32,000 bases of DNA from Nitrosopumilaceae archaeon (GCA_035631875.1 DASQHX010000009.1:137558-169557), one strand, 5' to 3'; counted from the first letter of the stretch, positions 7,044 to 28,444 are shown. The notes: generated by a model not told the origin, from the letters alone. Numbers and translations are program-made.

Positions 7044-7892
7044 ATGCAAGAATTTTCAAAAATAAATATAGATAGTACTATCAATAGCGGTCAAGTTTTT
7101 CTCTGGGACAAAATTGATGGAATATGGCATGGGATAAATGGTACAGAGGTTTTAAGAGTAGAACAAAATCCTTTTGATATAACTTCATCACAAAAAAAGG
7201 TCAGTAATTTTTTCAGACAAGATGACAATATGAAAAAAATTCTAAAAGAGATAAACAAAGACAGTCTTGTAAGATCTGCCGTAAAACACTTTCCAGGTCT
7301 AAGATTACTCAGACAAGATCCATTTCAATGCTATATCTCTTTTATTTGTTCATCAAATTCATCTATACAAAACATTAAACAAATGTTAAAACGACTTTGC
7401 CGAAAATTTGGTAAGAAAACAGATTTTGACGGTCATGAATTTTTTACTTTTCCTGATGTCGATAAGCTTGCAAAGGCCAGCCTGAATGATTTGCTTTCAT
7501 GCGGTCTTGGATTTAGAGCAAAATACGTAAAGAATGCGGCAATAACTGTTAATTCTGGTACCATAGAGTTTAATTTGTTAAAAAAAACAGATTATAATTC
7601 AGCAAAACAAGAATTAAAAGAGATTTACGGTATTGGGAATAAAGTTGCAGATTGCATACTCTTATTCTCACTTGAAAAATTAGAGGCATTTCCAATTGAT
7701 AGGTGGACACAAAGAATTCTCCAGAAATATTATTCAAAGAAATTTTCTGGTTTGATAGAAAAATCCCTCACGGAAAAAAATTATGAGTGTATCCATGAAA
7801 AAATCATAGAGTATTTTGGAGCATATGCAGGATATTCACAACAGTTTCTTTTCAAAATGGAAAGAGACCTAAACAAAAAAAGTTGGTTGTGA
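7044..7892 (+). CDS. ogg: 8-oxoguanine DNA glycosylase / AP lyase (HhH-GPD, Ogg family)
   Basis: SGQVFLW N-terminal motif, FICSSNSSI, helix-hairpin-helix GIGNKVADCILLF followed by PIDRW (catalytic Asp region). The ORF track starts at 7026, overlapping the upstream stop; the ATG at 7044 is equally possible. Confidence 0.8.
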   Translation: MQEFSKINIDSTINSGQVFLWDKIDGIWHGINGTEVLRVEQNPFDITSSQKKVSNFFRQDDNMKKILKEINKDSLVRSAVKHFPGLRLLRQDPFQCYISFICSSNSSIQNIKQMLKRLCRKFGKKTDFDGHEFFTFPDVDKLAKASLNDLLSCGLGFRAKYVKNAAITVNSGTIEFNLLKKTDYNSAKQELKEIYGIGNKVADCILLFSLEKLEAFPIDRWTQRILQKYYSKKFSGLIEKSLTEKNYECIHEKIIEYFGAYAGYSQQFLFKMERDLNKKSWL

Positions 7893-7899
7893 AAAACCC

Positions 7900-7906
7900 T
7901 TAATAT
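7900..7906 (+). promoter_or_regulatory. TATA-like box upstream of tRNA-Arg(TCT)
   Basis: ttaatat is centred about 25 nt upstream of the tRNA 5' end (7928), the usual archaeal TATA-to-start spacing. Sequence pattern only. Confidence 0.3.
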
Positions 7907-7927
7907 GGTAACCCAGTGCCCAATCTT

Positions 7928-8002
7928 GGGCCCGTAGCTCAGCTTGGACAGAGCACTGGACTTCTAATCCAGTGGTCAAGGGATCGAAGCCCTTCGGGCC
8001 CG
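7928..8002 (+). tRNA. tRNA-Arg (anticodon TCT)
   Basis: Hand-folded cloverleaf: acceptor gggcccg/cgggccc, D arm gctc-agcttggaca-gagc, anticodon arm ctgga-cttctaa-tccag (TCT at 7963-7965), variable loop tggtc, T arm aaggg-atcgaag-ccctt, discriminator g. No encoded CCA. Confidence 0.85.
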
Positions 8003-8003
8003 C
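7991..8003. repeat. attL core (tRNA 3' end) ccttcgggcccgc
   Basis: Recurs as ccttcgggtccgc at 15447-15459 (12/13). The extended alignment 7984-8003 vs 15440-15459 is 15/20. Confidence 0.65.
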
Positions 8004-8010
8004 TTTATCA

Positions 8011-8024
8011 GTTTTAGCGCGTCA
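8011..8024. repeat. left sub-terminal inverted repeat gttttagcgcgtca
   Basis: Perfect reverse complement of 15419-15432 (tgacgcgctaaaac), 14/14. Confidence 0.8.
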
Positions 8025-8081
8025 TGTGACTTTGTCAACTATTTTCCGTTCGAAATAGACAACATTTTGATTCTGTGTTAT

Positions 8082-9452
8082 TTATTCTGTTTTCTTGTCG
8101 CCAATTTTCTGCAACAATTTTTGCAACAGCTCCATTTCTTCTTGTGTTAGACTTCCAAGTTTTTCTTTTGTTTCTTCTTTTTGTTTTTCAAGTGGAGGAA
8201 CTTCACCTTTTTCCAGATCAAGAAATTCTTCACATCGACTAAATGCATTTCTCATTTCATCAATGAGCGAGTCTGGAAGAATTCCTTTGTTGGTTGTGTA
8301 CTTGGCTTCCATGTTTCCCTTGTGTCCCATAAAGAATACGCGAAAGTCATGTGCTATTTTTCCGCGAGATTCAGCGATGAGTAGTTGCGTGTCAAAGAAA
8401 GCTCTTAGCACATACGGTCTCCACAGAAATCTTGGTCGCATTGTTTTGTGAATTTCCCTGCGAATTGTCAATGTCTCCACGAATCTTTTGCCGATGTTTT
8501 CTCCTCTATGTCTGCCATACCTTGTGAAGGGCGCTATGACTGGAGATTCAGGCAGTAAAGATTCTCCCGAAATTAGCCTCTCATTTAGATAGGCTAACAG
8601 CCTCTTTGTTCCAAAGTCTGTCAGGAAGGTATAGTATTCGTGATCTGCTTTTGAGAGTGTCTTTCTTACCACGATTCTTGGCTGTTTACTTGCAAATGTA
8701 GCCAGACCTTCTTTTATGACAAGTTCAGGTAGATCCTTTATCATCAGCCCGTCTGTCGCGTTGTAGTTTCCCATCACTTCAGGTCTTAGACCAGCTTTGC
8801 CAATCAGTGACATTATGGCACCAGCCCTGAGATTTGCCCTGCTGAAAAGTTCTGCAAGTTCGTTTCCTTGTGGCACTCTCTCTTTTTCTAAAGTTGGCGT
8901 CGAGTCTACATTTGCTATCTTGATTCTTCTTTTTACGAAGACATCAAAATGATGCAGCCATGACTTTACCGCAGTTATGGTTCCCTTGATGTATTGTGGA
9001 GCATTGCCTCTGCTTTCCATCCATGATATGTGGTCTTGTAGAAGATCAGTTACTTCCCTGACGTCTTTGATTCCCAATTCTGCAACTTGCATCGGTGTGA
9101 TCTGATGATCCTCGCAGAATTTGCTCAGCCTTCTAAGATTTATCTCGGCTGAATTTGGACTACCTCTTGCTACATTTTTGTACCATCGTCTTACGTCTGG
9201 ATCGGCTAGCAGTCTTTCTTTCTTTGTTGGACTCTTTCGAACGGTTTGTGTCTTGTGTATTGTCTCGTTGTATGTCAATTTTTTTCCCACATCAGACCGC
9301 ACGGCTCTGCGGTCCTCATCAGAGAAAGCAAGTGAGTTTGTAGTATTTACCTTTTTTATGATCTGCTCACAATTTTTCAATACAACATTATTGAATTTAT
9401 AGCAGTGAAGGTACACTATATTATTGGGCAGAAAACCAAAAAACCAATTCAT
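8082..9452 (-). CDS. tyrosine recombinase / integrase
   Basis: Box I AGLRPEV; box II HDFRVFFMGHKGNMEAKY (H-x-x-R, H, catalytic Y). The gene reads toward the tRNA. The start is uncertain: TTG 9473 in the ORF track, ATG 9452, or an internal TTG near 9380 behind a tataaa at about 9392-9401. About 70 aa of acidic coiled-coil-like sequence follows the catalytic Tyr. Confidence 0.85.
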   Translation of the reverse strand: MNWFFGFLPNNIVYLHCYKFNNVVLKNCEQIIKKVNTTNSLAFSDEDRRAVRSDVGKKLTYNETIHKTQTVRKSPTKKERLLADPDVRRWYKNVARGSPNSAEINLRRLSKFCEDHQITPMQVAELGIKDVREVTDLLQDHISWMESRGNAPQYIKGTITAVKSWLHHFDVFVKRRIKIANVDSTPTLEKERVPQGNELAELFSRANLRAGAIMSLIGKAGLRPEVMGNYNATDGLMIKDLPELVIKEGLATFASKQPRIVVRKTLSKADHEYYTFLTDFGTKRLLAYLNERLISGESLLPESPVIAPFTRYGRHRGENIGKRFVETLTIRREIHKTMRPRFLWRPYVLRAFFDTQLLIAESRGKIAHDFRVFFMGHKGNMEAKYTTNKGILPDSLIDEMRNAFSRCEEFLDLEKGEVPPLEKQKEETKEKLGSLTQEEMELLQKLLQKIGDKKTE

Positions 9453-9507
9453 CGAAGCTAGTCTAGCGTTCAAGGAAGACTCGAAAATTAAAAGATATGA
9501 TGTAAAA

Positions 9508-9987
9508 ATGCCTTTTTGCTATGCCATAACGGTAGAAACCAACGATCCCAATAATGCGATAATGCAGACTACATGGGAATATTTTCTTAAAGATGATTCC
9601 AAATTAGACGAATTGATAAAAGAAATAGAAAGCCAGACCTTCAAGGTCAAAGTTATCAAAATCGAGCCAGCCGTGAGACAACTTATAGATCTATGTCCTA
9701 GATGTCATAAGCGAGGAGTGCCAAAAATTGAGAAGAAGAATACTAATGACAACAGGGAACGATCAGGAAGATACAAAGAAAAAACATCATCACAAAAGAA
9801 ACGAGAGCCAGAGTTTTGGCTGACTTATGTCCACACAAAAACAAAAAAATGCAGAATTTGTCAATATACGAATACTCCCTATCCTACGTACAAACATAAC
9901 AAAATCGATATTGAAAAATACTTTTTTCCTCAAATTATAGGAAATATGAAAAGAGGATCTCTCTGGTATTCTGATCAATCACAGTAA
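9508..9987 (+). CDS. hypothetical protein with split zinc-ribbon (CPRC ... CRIC)
   Basis: ORF 9424..9987 in the track. The ATG at 9508 (MPFCYAIT) avoids overlap with the integrase 5' end. CPRCHKRG and KCRICQY cysteine pairs are separated by a Lys/Arg-rich linker. Confidence 0.5.
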   Translation: MPFCYAITVETNDPNNAIMQTTWEYFLKDDSKLDELIKEIESQTFKVKVIKIEPAVRQLIDLCPRCHKRGVPKIEKKNTNDNRERSGRYKEKTSSQKKREPEFWLTYVHTKTKKCRICQYTNTPYPTYKHNKIDIEKYFFPQIIGNMKRGSLWYSDQSQ

Positions 9988-10244
9988 GGACATTCTACAG
10001 TTTCTTTTGGATTACGTACAAACGCAATTAACTTTTGACCACATCGAATGCAAATGTATCTCCTTTTGTGATGTTTTTGTGATTTGTACCATAATACCTC
10101 CGACCAATGGATCCGTTTTGTGCGAAATCTGTACTCTTCATCAAAGTAAAAGACAAACCATCGCTTCTTTGCACCGTTTTTTCCGTGTTGTCTTACCTCT
10201 GATCTTGGATGATACCAGCGTTTTGATACTGAAATTACAATCAT
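9975..10244 (-). CDS. small basic protein with C-terminal zinc ribbon
   Basis: 89 aa, very basic, with CIRCGQK...ECPYCD (CxxC-x17-CxxC). Candidate DNA-binding or regulatory protein of the element. ATG at 10244. Confidence 0.5.
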   Translation of the reverse strand: MIVISVSKRWYHPRSEVRQHGKNGAKKRWFVFYFDEEYRFRTKRIHWSEVLWYKSQKHHKRRYICIRCGQKLIAFVRNPKETVECPYCD

Positions 10245-10394
10245 TTCTGGATACTAATAGGATACTTCTTTTTGTCTATAAACTGGTGAAGGTACGAAAT
10301 TCTAATTATTCCAGAAAATTCATTGATTTTTTGTTACATTATGTGACATAATCCGAAAAGAATCCGTTAAATCCTTGACTTAAGTATGTGAGTC

Positions 10395-10976
10395 ATGGCT
10401 CTGACTAATGTAAACTTCCAAGATGAATTTGTAAAAGACTATTTCAAAAACCCATTCCTTTGGTGGAACTTTATCATATTCATATTTACTACATTCAACA
10501 CACAGCCTACTTTTAACACCATTTTGCAAAATATTATTATCAATTCTTACTATGTTCAAGTTCTATTTGCTTGTCTTGGTATTGCTCTTTTTCTTATGTT
10601 TTATCCCATAAGAAGAAGTCTAAAAAAATTAAACAAGAAAAAATATTATGTACATGCATCGCTTTTAGTTGGCGTTTTATTCGTACATGTTGCCTTTTTT
10701 ATGTCTGATCCTCCAGTAATTTTGGGCAAACTTTGGTCCGAAGTCATTATCAAGCCAGATTTATTCGACCAATCAGTATACACGTTGATTTTAGTCGGAT
10801 ATCTCGGAGTTCCTTTTTTGTATGCGTTTGCAACTACCACAGTTAAAAAATCATTGTTAGAAGCAAACCTCCCAATAGATGACAAACCCTCAAAGAATCT
10901 GGCATTTGGAGGAATGACAGCGTTGGTTACTGTAGTAATGTATTTTCTTTATACTTTCAGTACGAGTTTTCATTAG
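10395..10976 (+). CDS. hypothetical multi-pass membrane protein
   Basis: 193 aa with about 5 hydrophobic segments. No recognised motif. Confidence 0.5.
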   Translation: MALTNVNFQDEFVKDYFKNPFLWWNFIIFIFTTFNTQPTFNTILQNIIINSYYVQVLFACLGIALFLMFYPIRRSLKKLNKKKYYVHASLLVGVLFVHVAFFMSDPPVILGKLWSEVIIKPDLFDQSVYTLILVGYLGVPFLYAFATTTVKKSLLEANLPIDDKPSKNLAFGGMTALVTVVMYFLYTFSTSFH

Positions 10977-11024
10977 ATTGAATTAAGATCGAAGGAAATA
11001 ACAAGTGGATGACCATAATTCAAA

Positions 11025-11675
11025 ATGCAAGAAAAAATGATCTTCAAAGATGACATTGAAAAAATGTATAAACTTTACCTAGATACTGAAAGACAATTTG
11101 TTGAATTAAGCCGAATAATTCCGTTAGACAACAAACCTGAAACTTATTCTCCAAGATTGTATAGCATATTTCATACTGCTTGCGGTCAAGTAGAAAATAT
11201 GCTTAGATTAATCTGTGATAAATTAGAACTCAAATATCTTAACAATGATTTTCCAAGCTATTATGAACAACTTAATGTTCATGGCATGCTTGAAAGACAC
11301 AAAGTTATCTTGAAGGAAGCAAACGAACCAATTCAACCATTTATCATAAAGGATGGAAAATCTCCAGATTGGTGGAAAGGATATAACAAGGCAAAACATG
11401 CTTTACCAGAAGGTATTGTTGAAGGAAATATTGGAAACACAATAAATGCACTGGCGGGGATTTGTGTACTACACCAAATTTCATATTTTGCTGTTCATCC
11501 TCCTGAAAATGTACTAACGAAGGAAAATTGGTTTGAAATGGAAATTGACCTAAACAATATTGAAACCCCCGCATATGTTGTATCACCAAGTAATCGAGCT
11601 GATGAAAATACTATGTTTTATGCAATCACTACGTATAGTGGAATACATGAGAAACATAATCAAAATAAGTTATGA
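11025..11675 (+). CDS. hypothetical cytosolic helical protein, possible HEPN-like (DUF4145-like) domain
   Basis: 216 aa. YSPRLYSIFHTACGQVENMLRLI followed later by WWKGYNKAKHA resembles the helix-1 acidic residue plus the (R/N)xxxH motif layout of HEPN-type domains. Pattern-level only. Confidence 0.55.
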   Translation: MQEKMIFKDDIEKMYKLYLDTERQFVELSRIIPLDNKPETYSPRLYSIFHTACGQVENMLRLICDKLELKYLNNDFPSYYEQLNVHGMLERHKVILKEANEPIQPFIIKDGKSPDWWKGYNKAKHALPEGIVEGNIGNTINALAGICVLHQISYFAVHPPENVLTKENWFEMEIDLNNIETPAYVVSPSNRADENTMFYAITTYSGIHEKHNQNKL

Positions 11676-11720
11676 GTCTACAGTTGACAGTGATAAAAAT
11701 TCAAGGGATGTGGTATTAAA

Positions 11721-12473
11721 TTGACAGAACCTAACAGCAATCGAAAGATACGATGGAATCATCTTTTGATTTGTCTAATAGTGATAGTAAATATTTTCAT
11801 TTTTTCTTCTATTGCAATTGTAATTTTTGACGTACCGTTTCCGTTTATTAATCCTCATAATCCGCCTATACCTCTTCGATTTAGTTTATCGTATCCACCT
11901 CCAAAAGGCGTTGTGCTTCAAGATCCAAATATTTACGTTGATGTTACTTTACAATCTAATGATACCATTGCGGAAGGCACTCCTGTTCTTCTTACTGCCG
12001 TTGGAAGTCTTAGTGAAAGATTCTCCCAGAATGTTAGTCAGGTGATGGTAGGATTTGAAGGTTCATTGCCTACCTATACTACTTCTAATCCAACAGATGT
12101 TGTAACAATAAATCCTATTGGACCAGCATTTGGTAGTGTAGTCCTTACTCCATATTACGGAAAAGAGAATCATGCAAAATCTTCTTTTGGGATGGGTGGA
12201 CCTGACTTGTTAGAGAAATCACAAATCATTGAATGGAATGTTCAAGGAGATTATTCTCCAACTCTTGTGATATTATTCAATAGCCCTCTAAACCTAACAC
12301 AGCAAAAGGATACAAATATTCGTGTTCATGTCAGCCCTGCTAGTGTTTTACAAGATGAAAGATTAGGTCGTGAAAATATTGTGATCTCACTTGCACTTGT
12401 AGGATTTGAATTTGGTGCAAGTATTATGATCATGAGAGAATTGATAAAATCTATTCAATCCCGAACGAATTGA
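11721..12473 (+). CDS. hypothetical exported/bitopic protein (N- and C-terminal TM segments)
   Basis: 250 aa, TTG start. It has an N-terminal TM (LLICLIVIVNIFIFSSIAIVIF), a beta-rich middle with N-x-S/T sites, and a C-terminal hydrophobic segment. Confidence 0.5.
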   Translation: MTEPNSNRKIRWNHLLICLIVIVNIFIFSSIAIVIFDVPFPFINPHNPPIPLRFSLSYPPPKGVVLQDPNIYVDVTLQSNDTIAEGTPVLLTAVGSLSERFSQNVSQVMVGFEGSLPTYTTSNPTDVVTINPIGPAFGSVVLTPYYGKENHAKSSFGMGGPDLLEKSQIIEWNVQGDYSPTLVILFNSPLNLTQQKDTNIRVHVSPASVLQDERLGRENIVISLALVGFEFGASIMIMRELIKSIQSRTN

Positions 12474-12505
12474 AGTAGTAATAATGAGAATAACGTGAGG
12501 GAAGG

Positions 12506-12572
12506 AGTTTTGTAGCGAACCTTACAGGACTCGATTCTAAAATTATGAATGAGTCAATTCCTATTTCGATGA
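12506..12572. repeat. junction F: att-arm-like segment (12506-12523) fused to cassette 3' module (12516-12572)
   Basis: 12506-12523 is 17/18 identical to 15433-15450. 12516-12572 is 51/57 identical, ungapped, to 14610-14666. Confidence 0.8.
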
Positions 12573-13055
12573 ATTATTTTGAGATTTTATAGGTTCTACT
12601 AAACCATATCCAAAGCATTTAGTGTCGTAATCAGCATACATCCACGAATACTGCATTGGCTTGCTACAATCTATGGTCGGCACCAAATAGGCATAATAAT
12701 ATATCAAAAATCCTCCCATACTGCCAAAAGTTATTACAACTACAATAAGGGAGAGAAGGACTTTCCTACCAAGTATATTCACTCTTTTTTTAATTATGGG
12801 ATACTGTTTTTCAAGTTCTTCTTGTTTTGCCAAAACCTCTTCTTTTGACGGAATCAAAAAAAACCAAGCAACCGGAACTTTAAACCCATATTTCCACAGA
12901 AGGATTCCTAGCGCGTACATTACTATAAAAACTACAACGAAAAAAGCGAAATAGTTTGCTAAAGAGAAGTAGGCTGTTCTAAGATAAATGTACGACAAAA
13001 AAGAACCGATTATTAAAAATGTCATGCTGAAAATAAATCTGATTTGTGGGCGCAT
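12561..13055 (-). CDS. small membrane protein, cassette gene g1
   Basis: The ORF track gives 12561..13103 with TTG; the ATG at 13055 (MRPQIRF) is more likely. 4 hydrophobic segments with a charged KEEVLAKQEELEKQ linker. Ends NNSSK-stop inside the conserved 3' module. Confidence 0.55.
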   Translation of the reverse strand: MRPQIRFIFSMTFLIIGSFLSYIYLRTAYFSLANYFAFFVVVFIVMYALGILLWKYGFKVPVAWFFLIPSKEEVLAKQEELEKQYPIIKKRVNILGRKVLLSLIVVVITFGSMGGFLIYYYAYLVPTIDCSKPMQYSWMYADYDTKCFGYGLVEPIKSQNNSSK

Positions 13056-13104
13056 ATTGTTTGATTTGATACCAATCTTAAAGAATAAAGTATGTCTGTG
13101 CAAG

Positions 13105-13143
13105 ATACAAACTTGTCATCTCATCTCTCCAACAAATCATAAC
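13105..13143. repeat. junction A: cassette leader module
   Basis: atacaaacttgtcatctcat (13105-13124) is identical 20/20 to 15214-15233. tctccaacaaatcataac (13126-13143) is identical 18/18 to 13494-13511. Confidence 0.85.
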
Positions 13144-13214
13144 TCAGAAGTCATGTAAGTTGTCTTTTATTACATACTACCTGATTTTAGCAGAGTCAAG
13201 GATCAAGATGCTAA

Positions 13215-13493
13215 ATGGCAAATGAAAAACAAGTCAAATTGTGGGAACAAATCTTACTTGCCATTGTTGATCCTCTTTGGATATATGGGTTTTATCGAAT
13301 CCACAAACTAAGAAAAGGAGCTATAGTAGGGGGTGTGAGCTTAGCCACCTCTTGGATAATTTCAGATAAAATAGCAGTATGGAGTTGGTGGTATGTCATG
13401 CTGTGGATAGCAACATCAAGTTTCATAATTTATTATATGATAAAATGGTCCAAAGAATGGAATAAAAAACTAGATAGTGCTCCTAAACTTTGA
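13215..13493 (+). CDS. small membrane protein (92 aa), opposite orientation, inside an insertion in junction A/B
   Basis: ATG start, 2-3 hydrophobic segments, Trp-rich. The segment is bracketed by the 18-bp perfect direct repeat. Confidence 0.5.
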   Translation: MANEKQVKLWEQILLAIVDPLWIYGFYRIHKLRKGAIVGGVSLATSWIISDKIAVWSWWYVMLWIATSSFIIYYMIKWSKEWNKKLDSAPKL

Positions 13494-13538
13494 TCTCCAA
13501 CAAATCATAACGTAACTTCGCGTCTATTTCGATGAATT
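13494..13538. repeat. junction B: partial leader, short att-like stretch and a 15-nt remnant of the 3' module
   Basis: 13494-13511 = 13126-13143. gtaacttcgcgtc lies at 13512-13524. ctatttcgatgaatt (13524-13538) = 12561-12575. Confidence 0.75.
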
Positions 13539-13548
13539 TTTTTAAAAA

Positions 13549-13968
13549 TCAAGATATGTTAGAAGGCGTTTGTGTAGATTGATCGTACTTTCTTTTTCTG
13601 GAGATAAATGCTGGTACAGTAAATATTAGTCCTGCTATGAACAAATAAAGTAAGTTAGGACTACCAAATTTAATATACGCTAGTACACTTAGTACCAAAA
13701 AAATTGATTCACCAATAATGAATACTTTAAGGTTTGGTTTTTTCATTGGTTTAGAAGACTCTTTTCTCTCAACACCTTGAAAGAATTTTATCATGACAAA
13801 AAATAAGAGACCTATTCCCGCAAAAGATGATAACAACTCTATGCCCATGATATAATACCGTGTATCTCCGATTACAGGAGAGTCCTTTAGTCCATAGAGA
13901 ACTAAGAAACCTTGAATTATTAATACAAATCCAACAATCAATAAGACGTGATTTCTTTTCAATACCAT
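13549..13968 (-). CDS. small membrane protein, cassette gene g3
   Basis: The track gives 13549..13998 (TTG); the ATG at 13968 (MVLKRNH) is likely. 4 hydrophobic segments with a basic linker. Its upstream 40 nt are 34/40 identical to those of g1. Confidence 0.5.
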   Translation of the reverse strand: MVLKRNHVLLIVGFVLIIQGFLVLYGLKDSPVIGDTRYYIMGIELLSSFAGIGLLFFVMIKFFQGVERKESSKPMKKPNLKVFIIGESIFLVLSVLAYIKFGSPNLLYLFIAGLIFTVPAFISRKRKYDQSTQTPSNIS

Positions 13969-14014
13969 AACAATTTGGTATGATCTCTTAAAGAACAATG
14001 TATGTCATTGAAAG

Positions 14015-14058
14015 ATACAAACTTATTGTCTCATGGTATCTTTCCAATAAATCATGGC
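14015..14058. repeat. junction C: cassette leader module (diverged); contains the stop codon of g4
   Basis: atacaaacttattgtctcat is 17/20 to the consensus. aataaatcatggc corresponds to aacaaatcataac. No 3' module is present here. Confidence 0.7.
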
Positions 14059-14522
14059 ACTGTAGTTGGAGTACCTATACCAAAGTAAGATTTGACACGA
14101 GGTCTGTAAAAATAATAAATAATCAGTGCATCAATACATGCTCCAAAAACAATACCTCCAATATTTGATGAAATTGGATCTTCCCAGAAATTTAAGATAG
14201 TGTCAATAGCCAGTCCTAGTAGAATAAAGACAATTTCACCCTTCCATGCCCACTTACTACCTCTGAGCATTCCAATTGAAATAATGAAGGAAGTCACACC
14301 CCCCGCTACAAGAAAGCCTCCATATGCATATGAGAAGGGCCCTGAAAATAATGTTGAATTCCCGCCCAAGTTATTATTTAGATTTGCTATGAATGGTAAG
14401 AGTACCACTAACAATAAACCAATTAAGGAAGCAGAGATTCCTCCAATTATGCCAAGCACCCCAAGCACTGAGATCCCAAGAGGTCTTTCTAGTTTAGTTA
14501 TTGAAGGTTGTCCAGATTCCAT
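14052..14522 (-). CDS. small membrane protein, cassette gene g4
   Basis: 156 aa, ATG start, 4 Gly-rich hydrophobic segments, GMLRGSKWAW loop. Its first codons ATGGAATCTG are shared with g5. Confidence 0.55.
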   Translation of the reverse strand: MESGQPSITKLERPLGISVLGVLGIIGGISASLIGLLLVVLLPFIANLNNNLGGNSTLFSGPFSYAYGGFLVAGGVTSFIISIGMLRGSKWAWKGEIVFILLGLAIDTILNFWEDPISSNIGGIVFGACIDALIIYYFYRPRVKSYFGIGTPTTVP

Positions 14523-14570
14523 ATTTATGATTAGACTTGAAGACTAATAATCAGAGTGTGTTCTAATTTA

Positions 14571-14666
14571 GTACAAACCCGTCACTCAACTTTCTAACAA
14601 ATTATAACACGAGCCTTACAGGACTCAATTCAAAAATTATTAATGATTCAATGCCTATTTCGATGA
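14571..14666. repeat. junction D: complete junction (leader 14571-14608 plus 3' module 14610-14666)
   Basis: gtacaaacccgtcactcaac and aacaaattataac are leader homologues. The 3' module is 51/57 identical to 12516-12572. Confidence 0.8.
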
Positions 14667-15179
14667 GTCATTTTGGTTGTTGATTTTTGGTTGGTTATTA
14701 TTCCAATCTGTTTGCTTTCTTGCTTTTAGGAGGATAGGAAACATCGCGATTACTGAAACCAAGCCAATAGTAGAGAGAACAATAGGTGTCGTAGAATCAC
14801 CTGCGAAAAGAGAGTTAGACATAACGCCACTCTTAAAGAAGATTGAAGATGGAAATATGAATAATGAAAGTACCAACGATATTGCTGACAAACGCAAACC
14901 AGACCTTCGTTTACGAAATAGCAAGACAGAAGATATTATTGGAATCGATCCTATTGATGCAAGTATTATTGCGGGTAATCCAAACAATAGTAGAGCTTCT
15001 TTAGAATCTACGGTATATGGCAAGTCATAAGTAGCTAAAGTAAAAACGTACAAGGATATTACCACCATTATCGTACCTGAAAATAGTTGGAATACTGCCA
15101 AAATTGTCACATATAGATTAGGTCTGTGCCATCTAGATTCTTTAATGGGACTTTCAGATTCCATATTTTGTGATTCCAT
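14655..15179 (-). CDS. small membrane protein, cassette gene g5
   Basis: 174 aa, 4 hydrophobic segments, ends NDSSK-stop inside the 3' module. The second ATG at 15164 (MESESP) aligns with the g4 start and may be the true start. Confidence 0.55.
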   Translation of the reverse strand: MESQNMESESPIKESRWHRPNLYVTILAVFQLFSGTIMVVISLYVFTLATYDLPYTVDSKEALLLFGLPAIILASIGSIPIISSVLLFRKRRSGLRLSAISLVLSLFIFPSSIFFKSGVMSNSLFAGDSTTPIVLSTIGLVSVIAMFPILLKARKQTDWNNNQPKINNQNDSSK

Positions 15180-15213
15180 CTGGAGACTAATACGGTGAGT
15201 ATGTTCTATTGCA

Positions 15214-15253
15214 ATACAAACTTGTCATCTCATGATACTAAAAAAATCATAAC
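15214..15253. repeat. junction E: cassette leader module
   Basis: 20/20 identical to 13105-13124, followed by aaaaaatcataac. Confidence 0.85.
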
Positions 15254-15418
15254 GTACGATATTATCTAATCATCGGGAGTTTTTGGCTTTGGGCGGGGGC
15301 TCTCCCTTTTTACTCTTTTTTGATAAACTCGTTTGCTGTTTATTAAAATAAAAAATCAAAAAATTTGGATTATTAACAAATCTTCAATAAATTAATAAAA
15401 ATCAAAAAAAATTGGGGT

Positions 15419-15432
15419 TGACGCGCTAAAAC
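15419..15432. repeat. right sub-terminal inverted repeat tgacgcgctaaaac
   Basis: Perfect reverse complement of 8011-8024. Confidence 0.8.
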
Positions 15433-15446
15433 AGTTTTGTCGCGAA

Positions 15447-15459
15447 CCTTCGGGTCCGC
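15447..15459. repeat. attR core ccttcgggtccgc (degenerate copy of the tRNA-Arg 3' end)
   Basis: 12/13 to 7991-8003. It is a GC-rich string in an AT-rich intergenic region and is embedded in a potential hairpin cgcgaacc-ttcg-ggtccgcg (15441-15460). Confidence 0.65.
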
Positions 15460-15549
15460 GTCATTTTTAATTCAAAAACATTAACATGGTTTTCAAATTT
15501 GTTCATTTTTCTCACAAGTTATTTATCTTCATTATTTTACGCATATACT

Positions 15550-15900
15550 ATGAAAGATGTAGAAATAAAGATGGAAAGTTTGAACATAAAGCCTCATACT
15601 GAGATCAAAGGTAAGATTCAAGTGAATTATTCTGGTCGATACGACGGTGTTGTTGTGAACACACAGATATTAAATTCAAATCAACTCATAGTTTACAAAT
15701 CATATAACGGTAAAATTATTTCTCAAAATCTATCACGATTATTCATTAACAAAAACGATATGCCGCAAAACATGGTAGAATTTACAGCAATGATAGAATT
15801 TGAACCAAATCAAACTCATGATGTAAAATTTCGTGTATCCATAATACAAGAACATAAAGAGATTGAAAGTGACATTGTCTTTGCTAAGTTAATGCCCTAA
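15550..15900 (+). CDS. hypothetical beta-sandwich protein (arrestin-N/Spo0M-like pattern)
   Basis: The track ORF 15499..15900 starts at TTG; the ATG at 15550 (MKDVEIK) is likely. IKPHTEIKGKIQVNYSG...VVVNTQI alternation suggests an all-beta fold. Function unknown. Confidence 0.5.
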   Translation: MKDVEIKMESLNIKPHTEIKGKIQVNYSGRYDGVVVNTQILNSNQLIVYKSYNGKIISQNLSRLFINKNDMPQNMVEFTAMIEFEPNQTHDVKFRVSIIQEHKEIESDIVFAKLMP

Positions 15901-15943
15901 GAGCTGTTGATAATTCAAATTGTGAATCTAAATAGAAAGATGA

Positions 15944-16423
15944 TTAAGAAGTTGTAGCACCATGCACAACGTCAATCTCGCCTGTCATCCATGGATGTGG
16001 GTCACAATGATACTTTATTGTTGCCTCTTGAGTAAATAGAAATTGATATGTCGTTCCTGCCTTGATTATTCCAGGAGAGCCGAATTGACCACTATACGCA
16101 TCTTTGAATACACTACCTTGATCTGGTGTGACTGTGTGACCAGTGTCAGGACTGGTGTTTTTCCAAATAACTAGATTGTTTACACCAAGCTGAGACTCTA
16201 TTTTCTTCGGTACAAAATTTTGTTCTTGTTGTTGGTTTTCAGCACCTGGCACTATAGTTATAGTAGTTGCTTCACCAGGGTGCAATACTTTTTCAGGAAT
16301 TATTGGTTTTGCATTAAATTCAGGGACGAAATATAATTGATAATATGAAACTCCAACAGCAGCCCCAATTATGACTGCGATTAATCCTATACCATAAGCG
16401 TGACTTGAACTTGGAAGGCTCAA
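15944..16423 (-). CDS. membrane-anchored type-1 (blue) copper protein, plastocyanin-like
   Basis: 159 aa with an N-terminal TM anchor. Cupredoxin ligands: His in TGHTVTPD and C-x2-H-x3-M in HCDPHPWM. TTG start. Confidence 0.85.
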   Translation of the reverse strand: MSLPSSSHAYGIGLIAVIIGAAVGVSYYQLYFVPEFNAKPIIPEKVLHPGEATTITIVPGAENQQQEQNFVPKKIESQLGVNNLVIWKNTSPDTGHTVTPDQGSVFKDAYSGQFGSPGIIKAGTTYQFLFTQEATIKYHCDPHPWMTGEIDVVHGATTS

Positions 16424-27887: not shown

Positions 27888-28444
27888 ATTGGTATACATA
27901 ATACCACTGCAGTAAAAAGTAGAATCAAGTTAAAACCTATCCATGATGCAGATAAAAGCACGGTCATAATAGCAATAGGCAAAACTTTTCTCGTTTTTCT
28001 TTTGTCAATTTGACAAAGAGTAATAAAACTACCAAGCGCACTTAGGAAAAGACCTGTTTCAATTGTAAGATGAGATGGAGTTACTAAACCGTCTACTCCG
28101 TATATTTCATGTGAAATAGAATCAGCATAACCCCCCACAAGTTGTAAAATTGAACCTAATAGTATAATCTTTATTCCTTTAAACAGAATTTTATTTTCAG
28201 AATGTAGTAATAAAATAATCATACCCAAAACTGATGAACTAACAATCATTCCAACACCAGCATAAATTGTAACATGTTGAATTGTCCAGAATTTTTCAGG
28301 TGCTCGCAGGGCATGTGTTGACGCATCCCATATTCCACCCAACAGCTCTGTAACTGTACCACAAATAGCCAGAATTGAGATAATAAAGAGAAGGGTTTTA
28401 GTTTTTGAAAGAAATGAAGTAGAAATTAGATGAGATAGACGCAT
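27851..28444 (-). CDS. hypothetical multi-pass membrane protein
   Basis: 197 aa with about 6 hydrophobic segments and several His residues at helix ends. ATG start. Its 3' end overlaps the previous gene by 37 nt (convergent). Confidence 0.55.
   Translation of the reverse strand: MRLSHLISTSFLSKTKTLLFIISILAICGTVTELLGGIWDASTHALRAPEKFWTIQHVTIYAGVGMIVSSSVLGMIILLLHSENKILFKGIKIILLGSILQLVGGYADSISHEIYGVDGLVTPSHLTIETGLFLSALGSFITLCQIDKRKTRKVLPIAIMTVLLSASWIGFNLILLFTAVVLCIPIYDLFSSGCAVL

Follow-up and report, generated by a model that had tools for sequence, protein, structure and literature searches.

An integron-looking array of five small membrane-protein genes (g1-g5) in a Nitrosopumilaceae archaeon carries junction repeats that very probably belong to a casposon-linked dispersed family, and the principal family of these dispersed repeats is the terminal region of family-1 casposons. 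The array occupies positions 12474-15253 of a 32,000-nucleotide (nt) stretch (GCA_035631875.1, DASQHX010000009.1:137558-169557), here called the window, and lies inside a ~7.5-kb island (7928-15462) at tRNA-Arg(TCT), near the island's right end. A first-pass annotation had described divergent genes set between modular, conserved non-coding junctions and had proposed an integron-like platform linked to a neighbouring recombinase. We favour a different explanation, with the chances evenly balanced: the array would be a recombination-built mosaic of portable terminator-promoter cassettes, derived from casposon ends, that permit the shuffling of small genes. Casposons are the presumed ancestors of the adaptation machinery of CRISPR (clustered regularly interspaced short palindromic repeats), and little is known of their regulation, accessory genes and non-autonomous derivatives. 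An array that looks like an integron can thus have quite a different origin.

The dispersed family was delimited through an 18-mer, GTTATGATTTGTTGGARA, present in more than 120 metagenome contigs, several of which hold two to four copies. Stored metagenome loci carry L-numbers here, and their open reading frames (ORFs) are mechanical calls. The metagenome scan required the exact 18-mer, and its counts are lower bounds biased to conserved copies; the 120 stored loci hold 129 exact copies, six of them in high-GC contigs and probably there by chance. A conserved context upstream is common to most of the others. With repeat classes assigned by simple patterns, at least 54 of the 129 copies terminate a 100-115-nt repeat, R, which runs AACGAGTTT, ATCGACAAAGAGT, AAAAAGGCAAwCCCCCCC, a variable stretch, ACTAGrTAAT, CGTAC and the 18-mer. 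It opens with 24 nt that correspond to the final codons and stop of elongation factor 2 (EF-2; ..NEFIDKE-stop), and only about 7 of the 54 R copies are genuine EF-2 gene ends, the rest being non-coding copies. EF-2 is the main target of thaumarchaeal family-1 casposons (PMC6563490, PMC8464041); the target in N. koreensis consists of a leader GTTT and a TSD (target-site duplication) of 13 bp, ATTGATAAAGAGT (PMC6563490, PMC8464041), and both tandem casposons at ef-2 and an insertion at purD have been described (PMC6563490, PMC8464041, PMC6614799).

The genes around the 18-mer point the same way. In a set of 100 ORFs of 200 aa or more beside it, Cas1 was the commonest Pfam family (4 matches, best 1.6e-53), and the PolB type of organelles and viruses, purD and EF-2 had two matches each, in a view of the 25 commonest of 182 families. 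Scans of individual loci found Cas1 at 3e-44 and 3.4e-47 and PolB at 1.2e-24, plus a ParB-N protein. Two geometries recur: TSD, terminal repeat, 18-mer, small membrane ORF and casposase in L105 and L116, and a casposase 32 nt after the 18-mer in L097. Inverted repeat-TSD-repeat junctions were seen in L116, L013, L044 and others. Taking all copies together, the next start codon most often follows the 18-mer at a distance of 32 nt, and roughly one in two of the downstream ORFs has at least one transmembrane segment. The EF-2 and Cas1 proteins of these loci name the hosts as Nitrosopumilaceae, Nitrosotalea and "Thaumarchaeota archaeon" metagenome-reconstructed genomes.

Casposase-less relatives accompany these casposons. 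In L083 (4555-5830), a 1.2-kb element at EF-2 is enclosed by imperfect terminal repeats and two copies of the TSD, holds small ORFs only and has what appears to be an inward-facing promoter at each end; L078 (2078-4769) holds three such small TSD-bounded elements in tandem at the EF-2 3' end. These elements of 1.2-1.4 kb have no casposase, their ORFs being small secreted, Cys-rich or membrane proteins, and by sequence they look like non-autonomous casposon derivatives.

Several further observations concern the repeat family. Non-coding copies of the last ~24 nt of EF-2 (AACGAGTTTATCGACAAAGAGTAA; L009-L128) outnumber real EF-2 ends by ~7 to 1, and because these copies are longer than the 13-bp casposon TSD, plain target-site duplication is insufficient to account for them. 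A small Cys-rich ORF (..CADCGCFPEDCKRSKSNGECPNC..) recurs (L078 1901-2053, L083 4626-4799, L056, L124 and L010); it converges on the 18-mer, its 3' end running antisense into the repeat. In L053, L086, L094 and L117 the 18-mer has an alternative upstream context (TTGTAAAGTGATTTAGCGAAATTGGATA) that lacks the EF-2 and terminal-repeat part, which suggests another repeat subfamily. At L044 1921-3203, on a contig that also has a Cas1/PolB casposon, purD (the GARS gene) is adjoined at its 3' end by a terminal-repeat-like sequence, in agreement with the published purD insertion in Nitrosotalea devanaterra. Finally, in a 208-kb contig (L033 1204-1746) a complete R and a promoter block of the type called B in Table 1 precede a 123-aa non-membrane ORF whose neighbours are housekeeping genes (succinyl-CoA ligase, Ile-tRNA synthetase); solo R copies therefore probably also drive ordinary-looking chromosomal genes.

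A literature search for the 18-mer returned unrelated chance matches only, and in the papers searched we found no description of an invariant 18-mer, of a ~100-nt conserved casposon terminal region or of casposase-less membrane-gene derivatives. An exact and degenerate scan of 185,579 species genomes for a narrow motif, ATGAGAYRAYAAGTTTGTAT, gave four chance bacterial matches only. In IMG/VR the 20-mer described below had no match and the 18-mer a single chance match, in a high-GC tailed-phage contig.

Within the array, four genes (g1, g3, g4 and g5) lie on the minus strand and g2 is inverted (Table 1). The three families of shared modules reported in the first-pass annotation are present and far above chance, and most prove longer than described. 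The 20-mer ATACAAACTTGTCATCTCAT occurs at 13105-13124 and 15214-15233 with 0 mismatches and at 14015-14034 with 3 mismatches, against an expectation of 0.01 matches in window shuffles; a mismatch scan found no further copy anywhere else in the 32-kb window, and a fourth copy (14571-14590) is visible only through alignment. The earlier 13-mer belongs to a longer direct repeat of 18 nt, TCTCCAACAAATCATAAC, whose two perfect copies lie at 13126-13143 and 13494-13511; variants of it occupy 14591-14608, 14041-14058 and 15236-15253. The 3' module, also called HP, extends over 66 nt at 88% identity (12516-12581 vs 14610-14675) where 57 nt had been given, and its remnant at 13524-13543 measures 20 nt, not 15. 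Upstream, ~110 nt can be aligned across all four genes, and the boxes keep constant distances to the ATG: the 18-mer at -86 to -90, GTTTGTAY at -55 to -58, ACAYAC at -38 to -41 and a TATA-like box at -24 to -29. This register, together with the gene call on record, places the start of g5 at its second ATG (14655-15164, 169 aa) instead of the first (14655-15179). As had been noticed by eye, only the flanks are conserved: blastn at word size 7 finds no DNA similarity between the coding interiors of the units, and pairwise blastp of g1, g3, g4 and g5 finds nothing significant (the best pair, g1-g3, reaches E=0.02 in a tiny database).

Table 1. Coordinates of the array, its junction modules and the ends of the surrounding island (positions in the window).
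Feature	Position	Strand	Description
tRNA-Arg(TCT), attL of island	7928-8003	+	att core CCTTCGGGCCCGC at 7991-8003
Putative tyrosine recombinase of island	8082-9473	-	463 aa
3' module / HP copy 1	12474-12581	-	g1 stop (..NSSK-stop), T4 run, GAGTCCTGTAAGGTTCG, CTACAAAACT, then degenerate R fragment (CCTTCCCTCACG..ATTATTACTAC), whose likeness to R was judged by eye
g1	12561-13055	-	164-aa membrane protein
g1 upstream module, type A	13056-13143	-	perfect 18-mer, ATGAGATGACAAGTTTGTAT (13105-13124), GACATAC, TATA box TTTAAGA (13076-13085 region)
g2	13215-13493	+	92-aa membrane protein; inside 368-nt segment between perfect 18-nt direct repeats (13126-13143, 13494-13511)
Truncated junction	13494-13543	-	perfect 18-mer (13494-13511), 12-nt stretch, 20-nt remnant CTATTTCGATGAATTTTTTT; R model E=2.5e-7
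g3	13549-13968	-	139 aa, four transmembrane segments, mosaic history
g3 upstream module, type A	13969-14058	-	18-mer variant GCCATGATTTATTGGAAA (14041-14058, overlaps g4 stop), ATGAGACAATAAGTTTGTAT, GACATAC, TATA box TTTAAGA (13986-13995 region)
g4	14052-14522	-	156 aa, widespread four-transmembrane family
g4 upstream module, type B	14523-14608	-	18-mer variant GTTATAATTTGTTAGAAA (14591-14608), GGTTTGTAC, GAACACAC, TATA-like GATTATTAGTCT (14541-14552)
3' module / HP copy 2	14610-14675	-	last g5 codons (..DSSK-stop), T5 run, hairpin-like GAGTCCTGTAAGGCTCG; 88% identical to 12516-12581
g5	14655-15164	-	169 aa, four transmembrane segments, ORFan
g5 upstream module, type B	15165-15253	-	degenerate 18-mer, ATGAGATGACAAGTTTGTAT (15214-15233), GAACATAC, TATA-like GTATTAGTCT (15184-15193)
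Casposon-end repeat R, full copy	15242-15332	-	pseudo-leader AACGAGTTT, TSD-like 13-mer ATCAAAAAAGAGT (15312-15324), A5/C5-rich terminal-repeat-like stretch, box TTAGATAATATCGTAC, degenerate 18-mer (15236-15253)
Island right end	15419-15462	+	terminal inverted repeat TGACGCGCTAAAAC (15419-15432; partner 8011-8024), inner arm AGTTTTGTCGCGAACCTT, attR core CCTTCGGGTCCGC (15447-15459)

Lying 24-29 nt ahead of the ATG, the TATA boxes have the spacing expected of archaeal promoters whose transcripts begin at the start codon or beside it, and each gene thus probably has its own promoter and a leaderless mRNA. At the other end of the units, a T4-T5 run lies 19 nt past the stop codon of g1 and of g5 and is followed by the hairpin-like GAGTCCTGTAAGGYTCG, the HP module, which by its position is a plausible terminator. 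The order at a junction is terminator-like module, 18-mer, promoter block and ATG, and the T4-T5 run with the HP module stands upstream of the 18-mer and TATA box at two array junctions; g4 has no HP module, its stop codon sitting within the 18-mer of the next unit. The same composite of HP and 18-mer/TATA occurs in L010, L014, L070, L120 and L131. We consider a regulatory function of the junctions probable.

The connection between the array and the casposon ends was made with a sequence-only model of R, built from 40 metagenome copies with the window excluded. On the minus strand it detects a full copy at 15242-15332 (55.3 bits and E=1.7e-16, covering model positions 2-93 of 103), which forms the array head directly upstream of the g5 promoter block, and at internal 18-mers it detects partial copies (E=2.5e-7, 1.7e-5 and 0.04). 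A target-site copy of the EF-2 3'-end type is present once, by the terminal repeat (AACGAGTTT, ATCAAAAAAGAGT, AAAAAGGGAGAGCCCCC.. at 15242-15333). A weak match of the model at 28010-28032 lies within a coding region and was set aside as chance. Two genes add to the connection: g2 resembles an ORF between 18-mer and casposase in L116 (30% identity over 101 aa, E=2.6e-6, blastp), and an 89-aa Zn-ribbon-like island ORF (9975-10244, minus strand) is 41% identical to L116 855-1169 (E=5e-22), so the island shares at least two genes with a casposon neighbourhood. The window holds a casposon-type end and small genes of casposon type, yet no casposon. The modules, which the first-pass annotation had treated as a system private to the array, are instead dispersed over many ammonia-oxidiser contigs and tied to casposon ends; they come close to the generic sequences at unrelated loci that it had named as speaking against its proposal, being dispersed repeats in many contigs.

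A casposon-type array head could mean that the casposase itself built the array. Each unit would then be a small non-autonomous casposon or an arbitrary fragment integrated in trans at the leader-proximal TSD, by the same process as in the L078 arrays, and later deletions would have stripped the internal TSDs and terminal repeats and spared the subterminal 18-mers. The head does carry a bona fide TSD and terminal repeat, and partial matches of the R model reach ~30 nt upstream of two internal 18-mers. L078 and L083 offer the precedent of tandem TSD-bounded elements of 1.2-1.4 kb at EF-2 with the same kinds of ORF, tandem casposons at ef-2 are published (PMC6563490), and the N. koreensis casposase integrates substrates of widely varied length and sequence in vitro (PMC8464041). 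Against this, the window retains a single TSD and has neither an inverted terminal repeat nor, anywhere in its 32 kb, a casposase gene, and at least four independent and fairly precise deletions would be required. At two internal junctions, moreover, the HP module or an ORF stop abuts the 18-mer, and since this arrangement recurs in L014, L070, L120, L131 and L010 it suggests a stable composite rather than decay. We regard serial insertion by the casposase as unlikely.

The same units were found in other genomes with other neighbours, which bears out the earlier description of separate modular units with conserved junctions (g4 in L006, L007, L008 and L010, g3 in L129 and L130, g2 in L131). 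The g4 orthologue of soil contigs L006, L007 and L008 is 66% identical at the aa level and 78.5% at the nt level over 549 nt; homology of these contigs to the window is limited to the g4 unit and the neighbouring genes differ. Across such other contexts, g4 orthologues have 64-66% identity. L006 keeps the type-B promoter boxes, with the stop codon within GTTATGATTTGTTGGAAAGA, and L010 keeps the whole block (long-form HP, 18-mer, type-B promoter, g4 and second 18-mer) among different neighbours. In the 60 nt of promoter proximal to g4, 45-46 of 61 positions are conserved in L006 and L010, and in both the 18-mer again overlaps the stop codon of the g4 orthologue. In L129 the g3 homologue retains the type-A boxes; an 18-mer-like sequence lies inverted upstream of it, and downstream comes a non-coding stretch that resembles the g5 tail plus 3' module. 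In L131 a reverse 18-mer and an entire HP module come after the g2 homologue; this intact arrangement indicates that the window junction 13494-13543 is a deleted version of it. Homology of the window to L006, L010, L129 and L131 stops at the modules or within a few nt of them, and one 18-mer is joined to many different left and right partners.

The HP core was found in 10 metagenome loci and in both orientations relative to genes, which indicates that the common NxSSK-stop ends of g1 and g5 come from the repeat. In L090, HP and CTACAAAACT are ~80% identical over ~78 nt, as judged by eye, and stand in the opposite orientation between two large surface-protein genes. Protein homology as the source of the NxSSK ends was rejected, as the stretch also occurs in L090, in the opposite orientation and with unrelated genes.

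The proteins share a layout (in g1, g3, g4 and g5, two pairs of transmembrane segments with a basic loop between the pairs and a polar tail at the end) and differ in how widely they occur. For g5, the only match among 5.8 billion protein clusters is g5 itself; g5, a blue-copper protein and an OGG protein are each on record only from one and the same Logan contig. The g4 family counts 289 cluster representatives at E<=1e-3 and has the motif RPxGVT..GLLKGKxWAW..YYLYRPHVKxYFG; 23 of 41 aligned relatives match Pfam DUF7144 and 10 of 41 DUF2127, g4 itself being below the Pfam threshold. One homologue of g3 was found, at 50% identity, and the identical protein in NCBI is VEU72_02910 (Nitrosopumilaceae archaeon); likewise g2 has one homologue, at 62% identity in L131, and an identical NCBI protein, VEU72_02905 (Nitrosopumilaceae archaeon, metagenome-assembled genome TPA). 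For g1, no relatives were detected in the material searched, which did not include large protein databases. The profile-profile comparison that had been suggested as a homology check gave a mixed outcome: in hhalign the g4 family profile weakly matches g5 (P=5.7e-4, 29% probability), with the RP motif and the basic loop aligned, and finds nothing with g1 or g3.

Rates and identities along the units would fit near-neutral coding sequence between constrained boxes. Orthologue dN/dS is 0.46-0.89, almost neutral (0.56 and 0.89 for g4 pairs, 0.81 for g3). Between orthologues the proximal 60 nt of the promoter are 74-75% identical and the coding DNA 78%; the paralogues g4 and g5 have 73% identity in the flank and unalignable coding DNA. 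Paralogue flanks are thus about as similar as orthologue flanks, as expected if only functional boxes are held constant. At the nucleotide level g3 and its L129 homologue (1109-1555) are 80-97% identical in the 3' half, from the loop KPxKKPNLK through the stop codon, and ~50% identical in the 5' half, which encodes the first two transmembrane segments; by this pattern g3 is a mosaic within the gene. Both ends of the units are homologous, g1, g3 and g5 sharing their 3' ends.

Much of this would also follow from local tandem duplication of a single unit (promoter, four-transmembrane gene, terminator), with proteins diverging near-neutrally or under diversifying selection and boxes kept by purifying selection, possibly aided by gene conversion. 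The first-pass annotation had raised this alternative, and part of it stands: the four-box register is identical in all four genes, the proteins have the two-plus-two transmembrane architecture in common, g5 matches the g4 profile, and the 3' ends common to g1, g3 and g5 have a counterpart in the region downstream of the L129 g3 homologue, which resembles the g5 tail. With dN/dS of 0.5-0.9, protein similarity would be lost about as fast as silent DNA, and the near-equal flank identities of paralogues and orthologues look as if only constrained boxes survive. The distribution of the units, however, fits poorly. Orthologues of g2, g3 and g4 sit alone in other genomes beside other neighbours, so either the units predate the array or they have moved; many unrelated loci, and casposon ends too, carry the modules; g2 is inverted between perfect 18-nt repeats; g3 is a mosaic; and g1 and g3 show no relation to the g4 profile. 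Tandem duplication as the origin of the array seems to us improbable.

The integron-like reading, in which the recombinase at 8082-9473 captures cassettes at attC-like junctions, has real features on its side: short ORFs, mostly in one orientation, with conserved junctions between them, a recombinase-like ORF 3 kb away, the perfect 18-nt direct repeats either side of g2, and the fact that archaeal integrons exist (PMC9668308). Also in its favour is the resemblance between junction and island end that the first-pass annotation had spotted in a short string abutting the att core: on the plus strand, the first 18 nt of the HP module (AGTTTTGTAGCGAACCTT, 12506-12523) differ by one base from the inner arm of the island attR (15433-15450). 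Integrons, archaeal ones included, are defined by attC sites that fold as single strands and by an IntI with a specific extra domain (PMC9668308). attC-type folding is absent from the array, where nine folds, covering the four internal junctions on both strands and the array head, had z-scores between -1.75 and +0.73 relative to shuffled sequence; for 41 copies of the R family RNAalifold gave zero consensus pairs, and an Rfam search over 7500-16000 at E<=1 returned the tRNA only. By sequence, a TATA-like box of its own stands before each gene, unlike in integron cassettes, most of which have no promoter and are expressed from a common one.

Nor does the recombinase appear tied to the array. 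The sole profile support for the 463-aa ORF is phrog_1 (integrase) at E=0.014; it has no Pfam or NCBIfam integrase match, nothing pointing to the IntI-specific domain and no confirmed relative in IMG/VR. Catalytic-looking motifs (GLRPE..YVLR..MGH..AKY) were read by eye, and an AlphaFold2 single-sequence model of the ORF (predicted local distance difference test, pLDDT, 36) was not used. The ORF belongs to the tRNA-Arg island, which has its own 13-nt att core (7991-8003 and 15447-15459, one mismatch) and, just inside its ends, perfect 14-nt inverted repeats (TGACGCGCTAAAAC, 8011-8024 and 15419-15432). The att system of the island is separate from the array junctions. In the loci examined the junction repeats adjoin Cas1 casposases, as seen in a census of the 25 commonest of 182 Pfam families; integrase genes may lie beside other copies. 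The integron-like platform is therefore largely refuted, and we hold it very improbable. Of the capture and shuffling platform first proposed, the architecture remains a fair description, with g2 lying between its perfect direct repeats; the integron likeness and the link to the recombinase do not.

On the minus strand, HP (12506-12537 and 14610-14631; also L010, L014, L090 and others) resembles the 3' half of a tRNA, with a TTCGAGT T-loop, a G53-C61 pair and then the acceptor strand, in what appears to be a decayed state. From this resemblance the HP copies may be relic att sites. As part of a genuine tRNA gene HP was rejected: ARAGORN finds no tRNA in 14 HP-bearing loci.

In the explanation by portable cassettes, a casposon end would have seeded the array. 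The complete repeat consists of an EF-2 3'-end target copy, the terminal repeat and the invariant 18-mer, and is followed by a putative inward-facing TATA promoter that would drive a small membrane-protein gene or the casposase itself. The T-run/hairpin-like module would end the upstream gene, even providing its last codons and stop; the 18-mer, promoter block, TATA box and ATG of the next gene would come after it. Such cassettes would provide both expression signals and short homology, and through recombination at them small ORFs could be inserted, lost, inverted and exchanged among casposons, integrated elements and chromosomal islands. Signs of recombination are the mosaic structure of g3 and the perfect 18-nt direct repeats on either side of the inverted g2; by analogy, the repeats around g2 could be the structure left by integration of a mini-circle of one ORF and one cassette. 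That the array itself was assembled by recombination at cassettes is a tentative claim, to which we give slightly less than an even chance. The near-neutral evolution and mosaicism of the ORFs would explain why the proteins no longer align and the boxes do. The 18-mer may in addition be a protein-binding site, because short homology alone would not hold more than 100 copies identical with flanks varying at their borders.

Several points weigh against this explanation. The promoter and terminator roles are inferred from sequence position, and the HP hairpin is not thermodynamically unusual (z -1.2 to -1.75). Only one casposon-like end lies in the window; the internal junctions are without TSD and terminal-repeat parts, and their derivation from a casposon end is by resemblance. 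In the window, tblastn with four casposases from related loci finds no casposase, and tblastn with the L044 PolB no PolB remnant; there is no second, flanking TSD, and no inverted terminal repeat was found, either as a partner in 7900-15500 or on the plus strand by the R model. An 18-nt homology block cannot locate crossovers, so homologous and site-specific recombination would look alike. A single strain is on record, and gain or loss of units was not directly observed. Duplication of whole units fits equally well the fourfold register, the weak g4-g5 match and the 3' ends common to g1, g3 and g5. The 18-mer counts, finally, are exact-match lower bounds that favour conserved copies.

Still another reading, which we think quite improbable, would make the 18-mer with its EF-2-type target copy a gene-capture platform of ammonia-oxidising archaea, in which the casposase or an 18-mer-binding protein serially inserts gene-sized, promoter-bearing units at casposon target sites. 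If true, such arrays would resemble CRISPR arrays with genes as spacers; they would represent a living link from casposon integration to spacer acquisition and, in archaea, a counterpart of integrons built on Cas1 chemistry.

For casposon biology, these results mean that casposons of soil and sediment Nitrosopumilaceae have a strongly conserved terminal region of ~100 nt with an invariant 18-mer just upstream of a putative inward-facing promoter. The 18-mer is a candidate binding site for a regulator or the casposase. Small casposase-less, TSD-bounded elements accumulate in tandem at EF-2, and fast-evolving small membrane proteins are bracketed by probable terminator-promoter pieces that lie scattered over genomes and integrated elements. 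If these pieces mediate shuffling, they would offer a route for trying out and spreading new small membrane proteins, whose roles might be in exclusion or at the surface, among ammonia oxidisers, organisms of global importance for nitrification.

Among known systems, the family-1 casposons of Thaumarchaeota (NitAR1-C1, NitNF5-C1/C2; PMC6563490, PMC8464041, PMC6614799) are the source of the closest sequence likeness: the array head repeat starts with their EF-2 3'-end target and TSD, genes for protein-primed PolB and the Cas1 casposase stand directly beside related metagenome copies, the loci show tandem arrays at ef-2 and insertion at purD, both also published, and g2 is similar to an ORF from a casposon end. 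The window differs in having no casposase, PolB, second TSD or inverted terminal repeat, and the array repeats only the subterminal 18-mer and promoter, in direct orientation. Tandem elements that re-use one att or target site (PMC6563490) are similar in that the EF-2 3'-end copy and tRNA-3'-end-like pieces recur inside the region; the array units, however, are 0.4-0.7 kb with a single gene and no integrase, and most internal junctions show no recognisable target-site copy. Integron arrays and clusters of attC sites that lack an integrase (CALINs), including archaeal ones (PMC9668308), likewise consist of tandem short ORFs, mostly in one orientation, with conserved non-coding sites and a nearby tyrosine-recombinase-like gene, whereas the array has neither the attC single-strand fold nor a recognised IntI, its genes have apparent promoters of their own and its junction repeats are casposon-linked.

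The promoter-early stem-loop (PeSL) cassettes of T4-like phages are terminator/promoter repeats that shuffle ORFan genes and are excisable as mini-circles, and recombination between cassettes has been proposed to cause insertions, deletions, replacements and the excised mini-circles (PMC2839356, PMC4122927). Short composites, of terminator and promoter in the phages and of terminator-like and promoter-like parts in the array, are in both cases repeated between small, mostly ORFan, non-essential genes of a variable region, and one cassette joins otherwise unrelated sequences. The sequences themselves are unrelated: the array has a putative archaeal promoter (TATA, apparently leaderless mRNAs) in place of a sigma-70 type, and its setting is a cellular genome, integrated elements and casposons in place of a lytic phage. 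In the phages, promoter and terminator activity and mini-circles were demonstrated experimentally, whereas the array is known from sequence alone. If the scattered pieces do mediate shuffling, they would be the archaeal counterpart of the phage cassettes, and we consider PeSL the closest functional analogy to the array, a likeness of mechanism and not of family membership.

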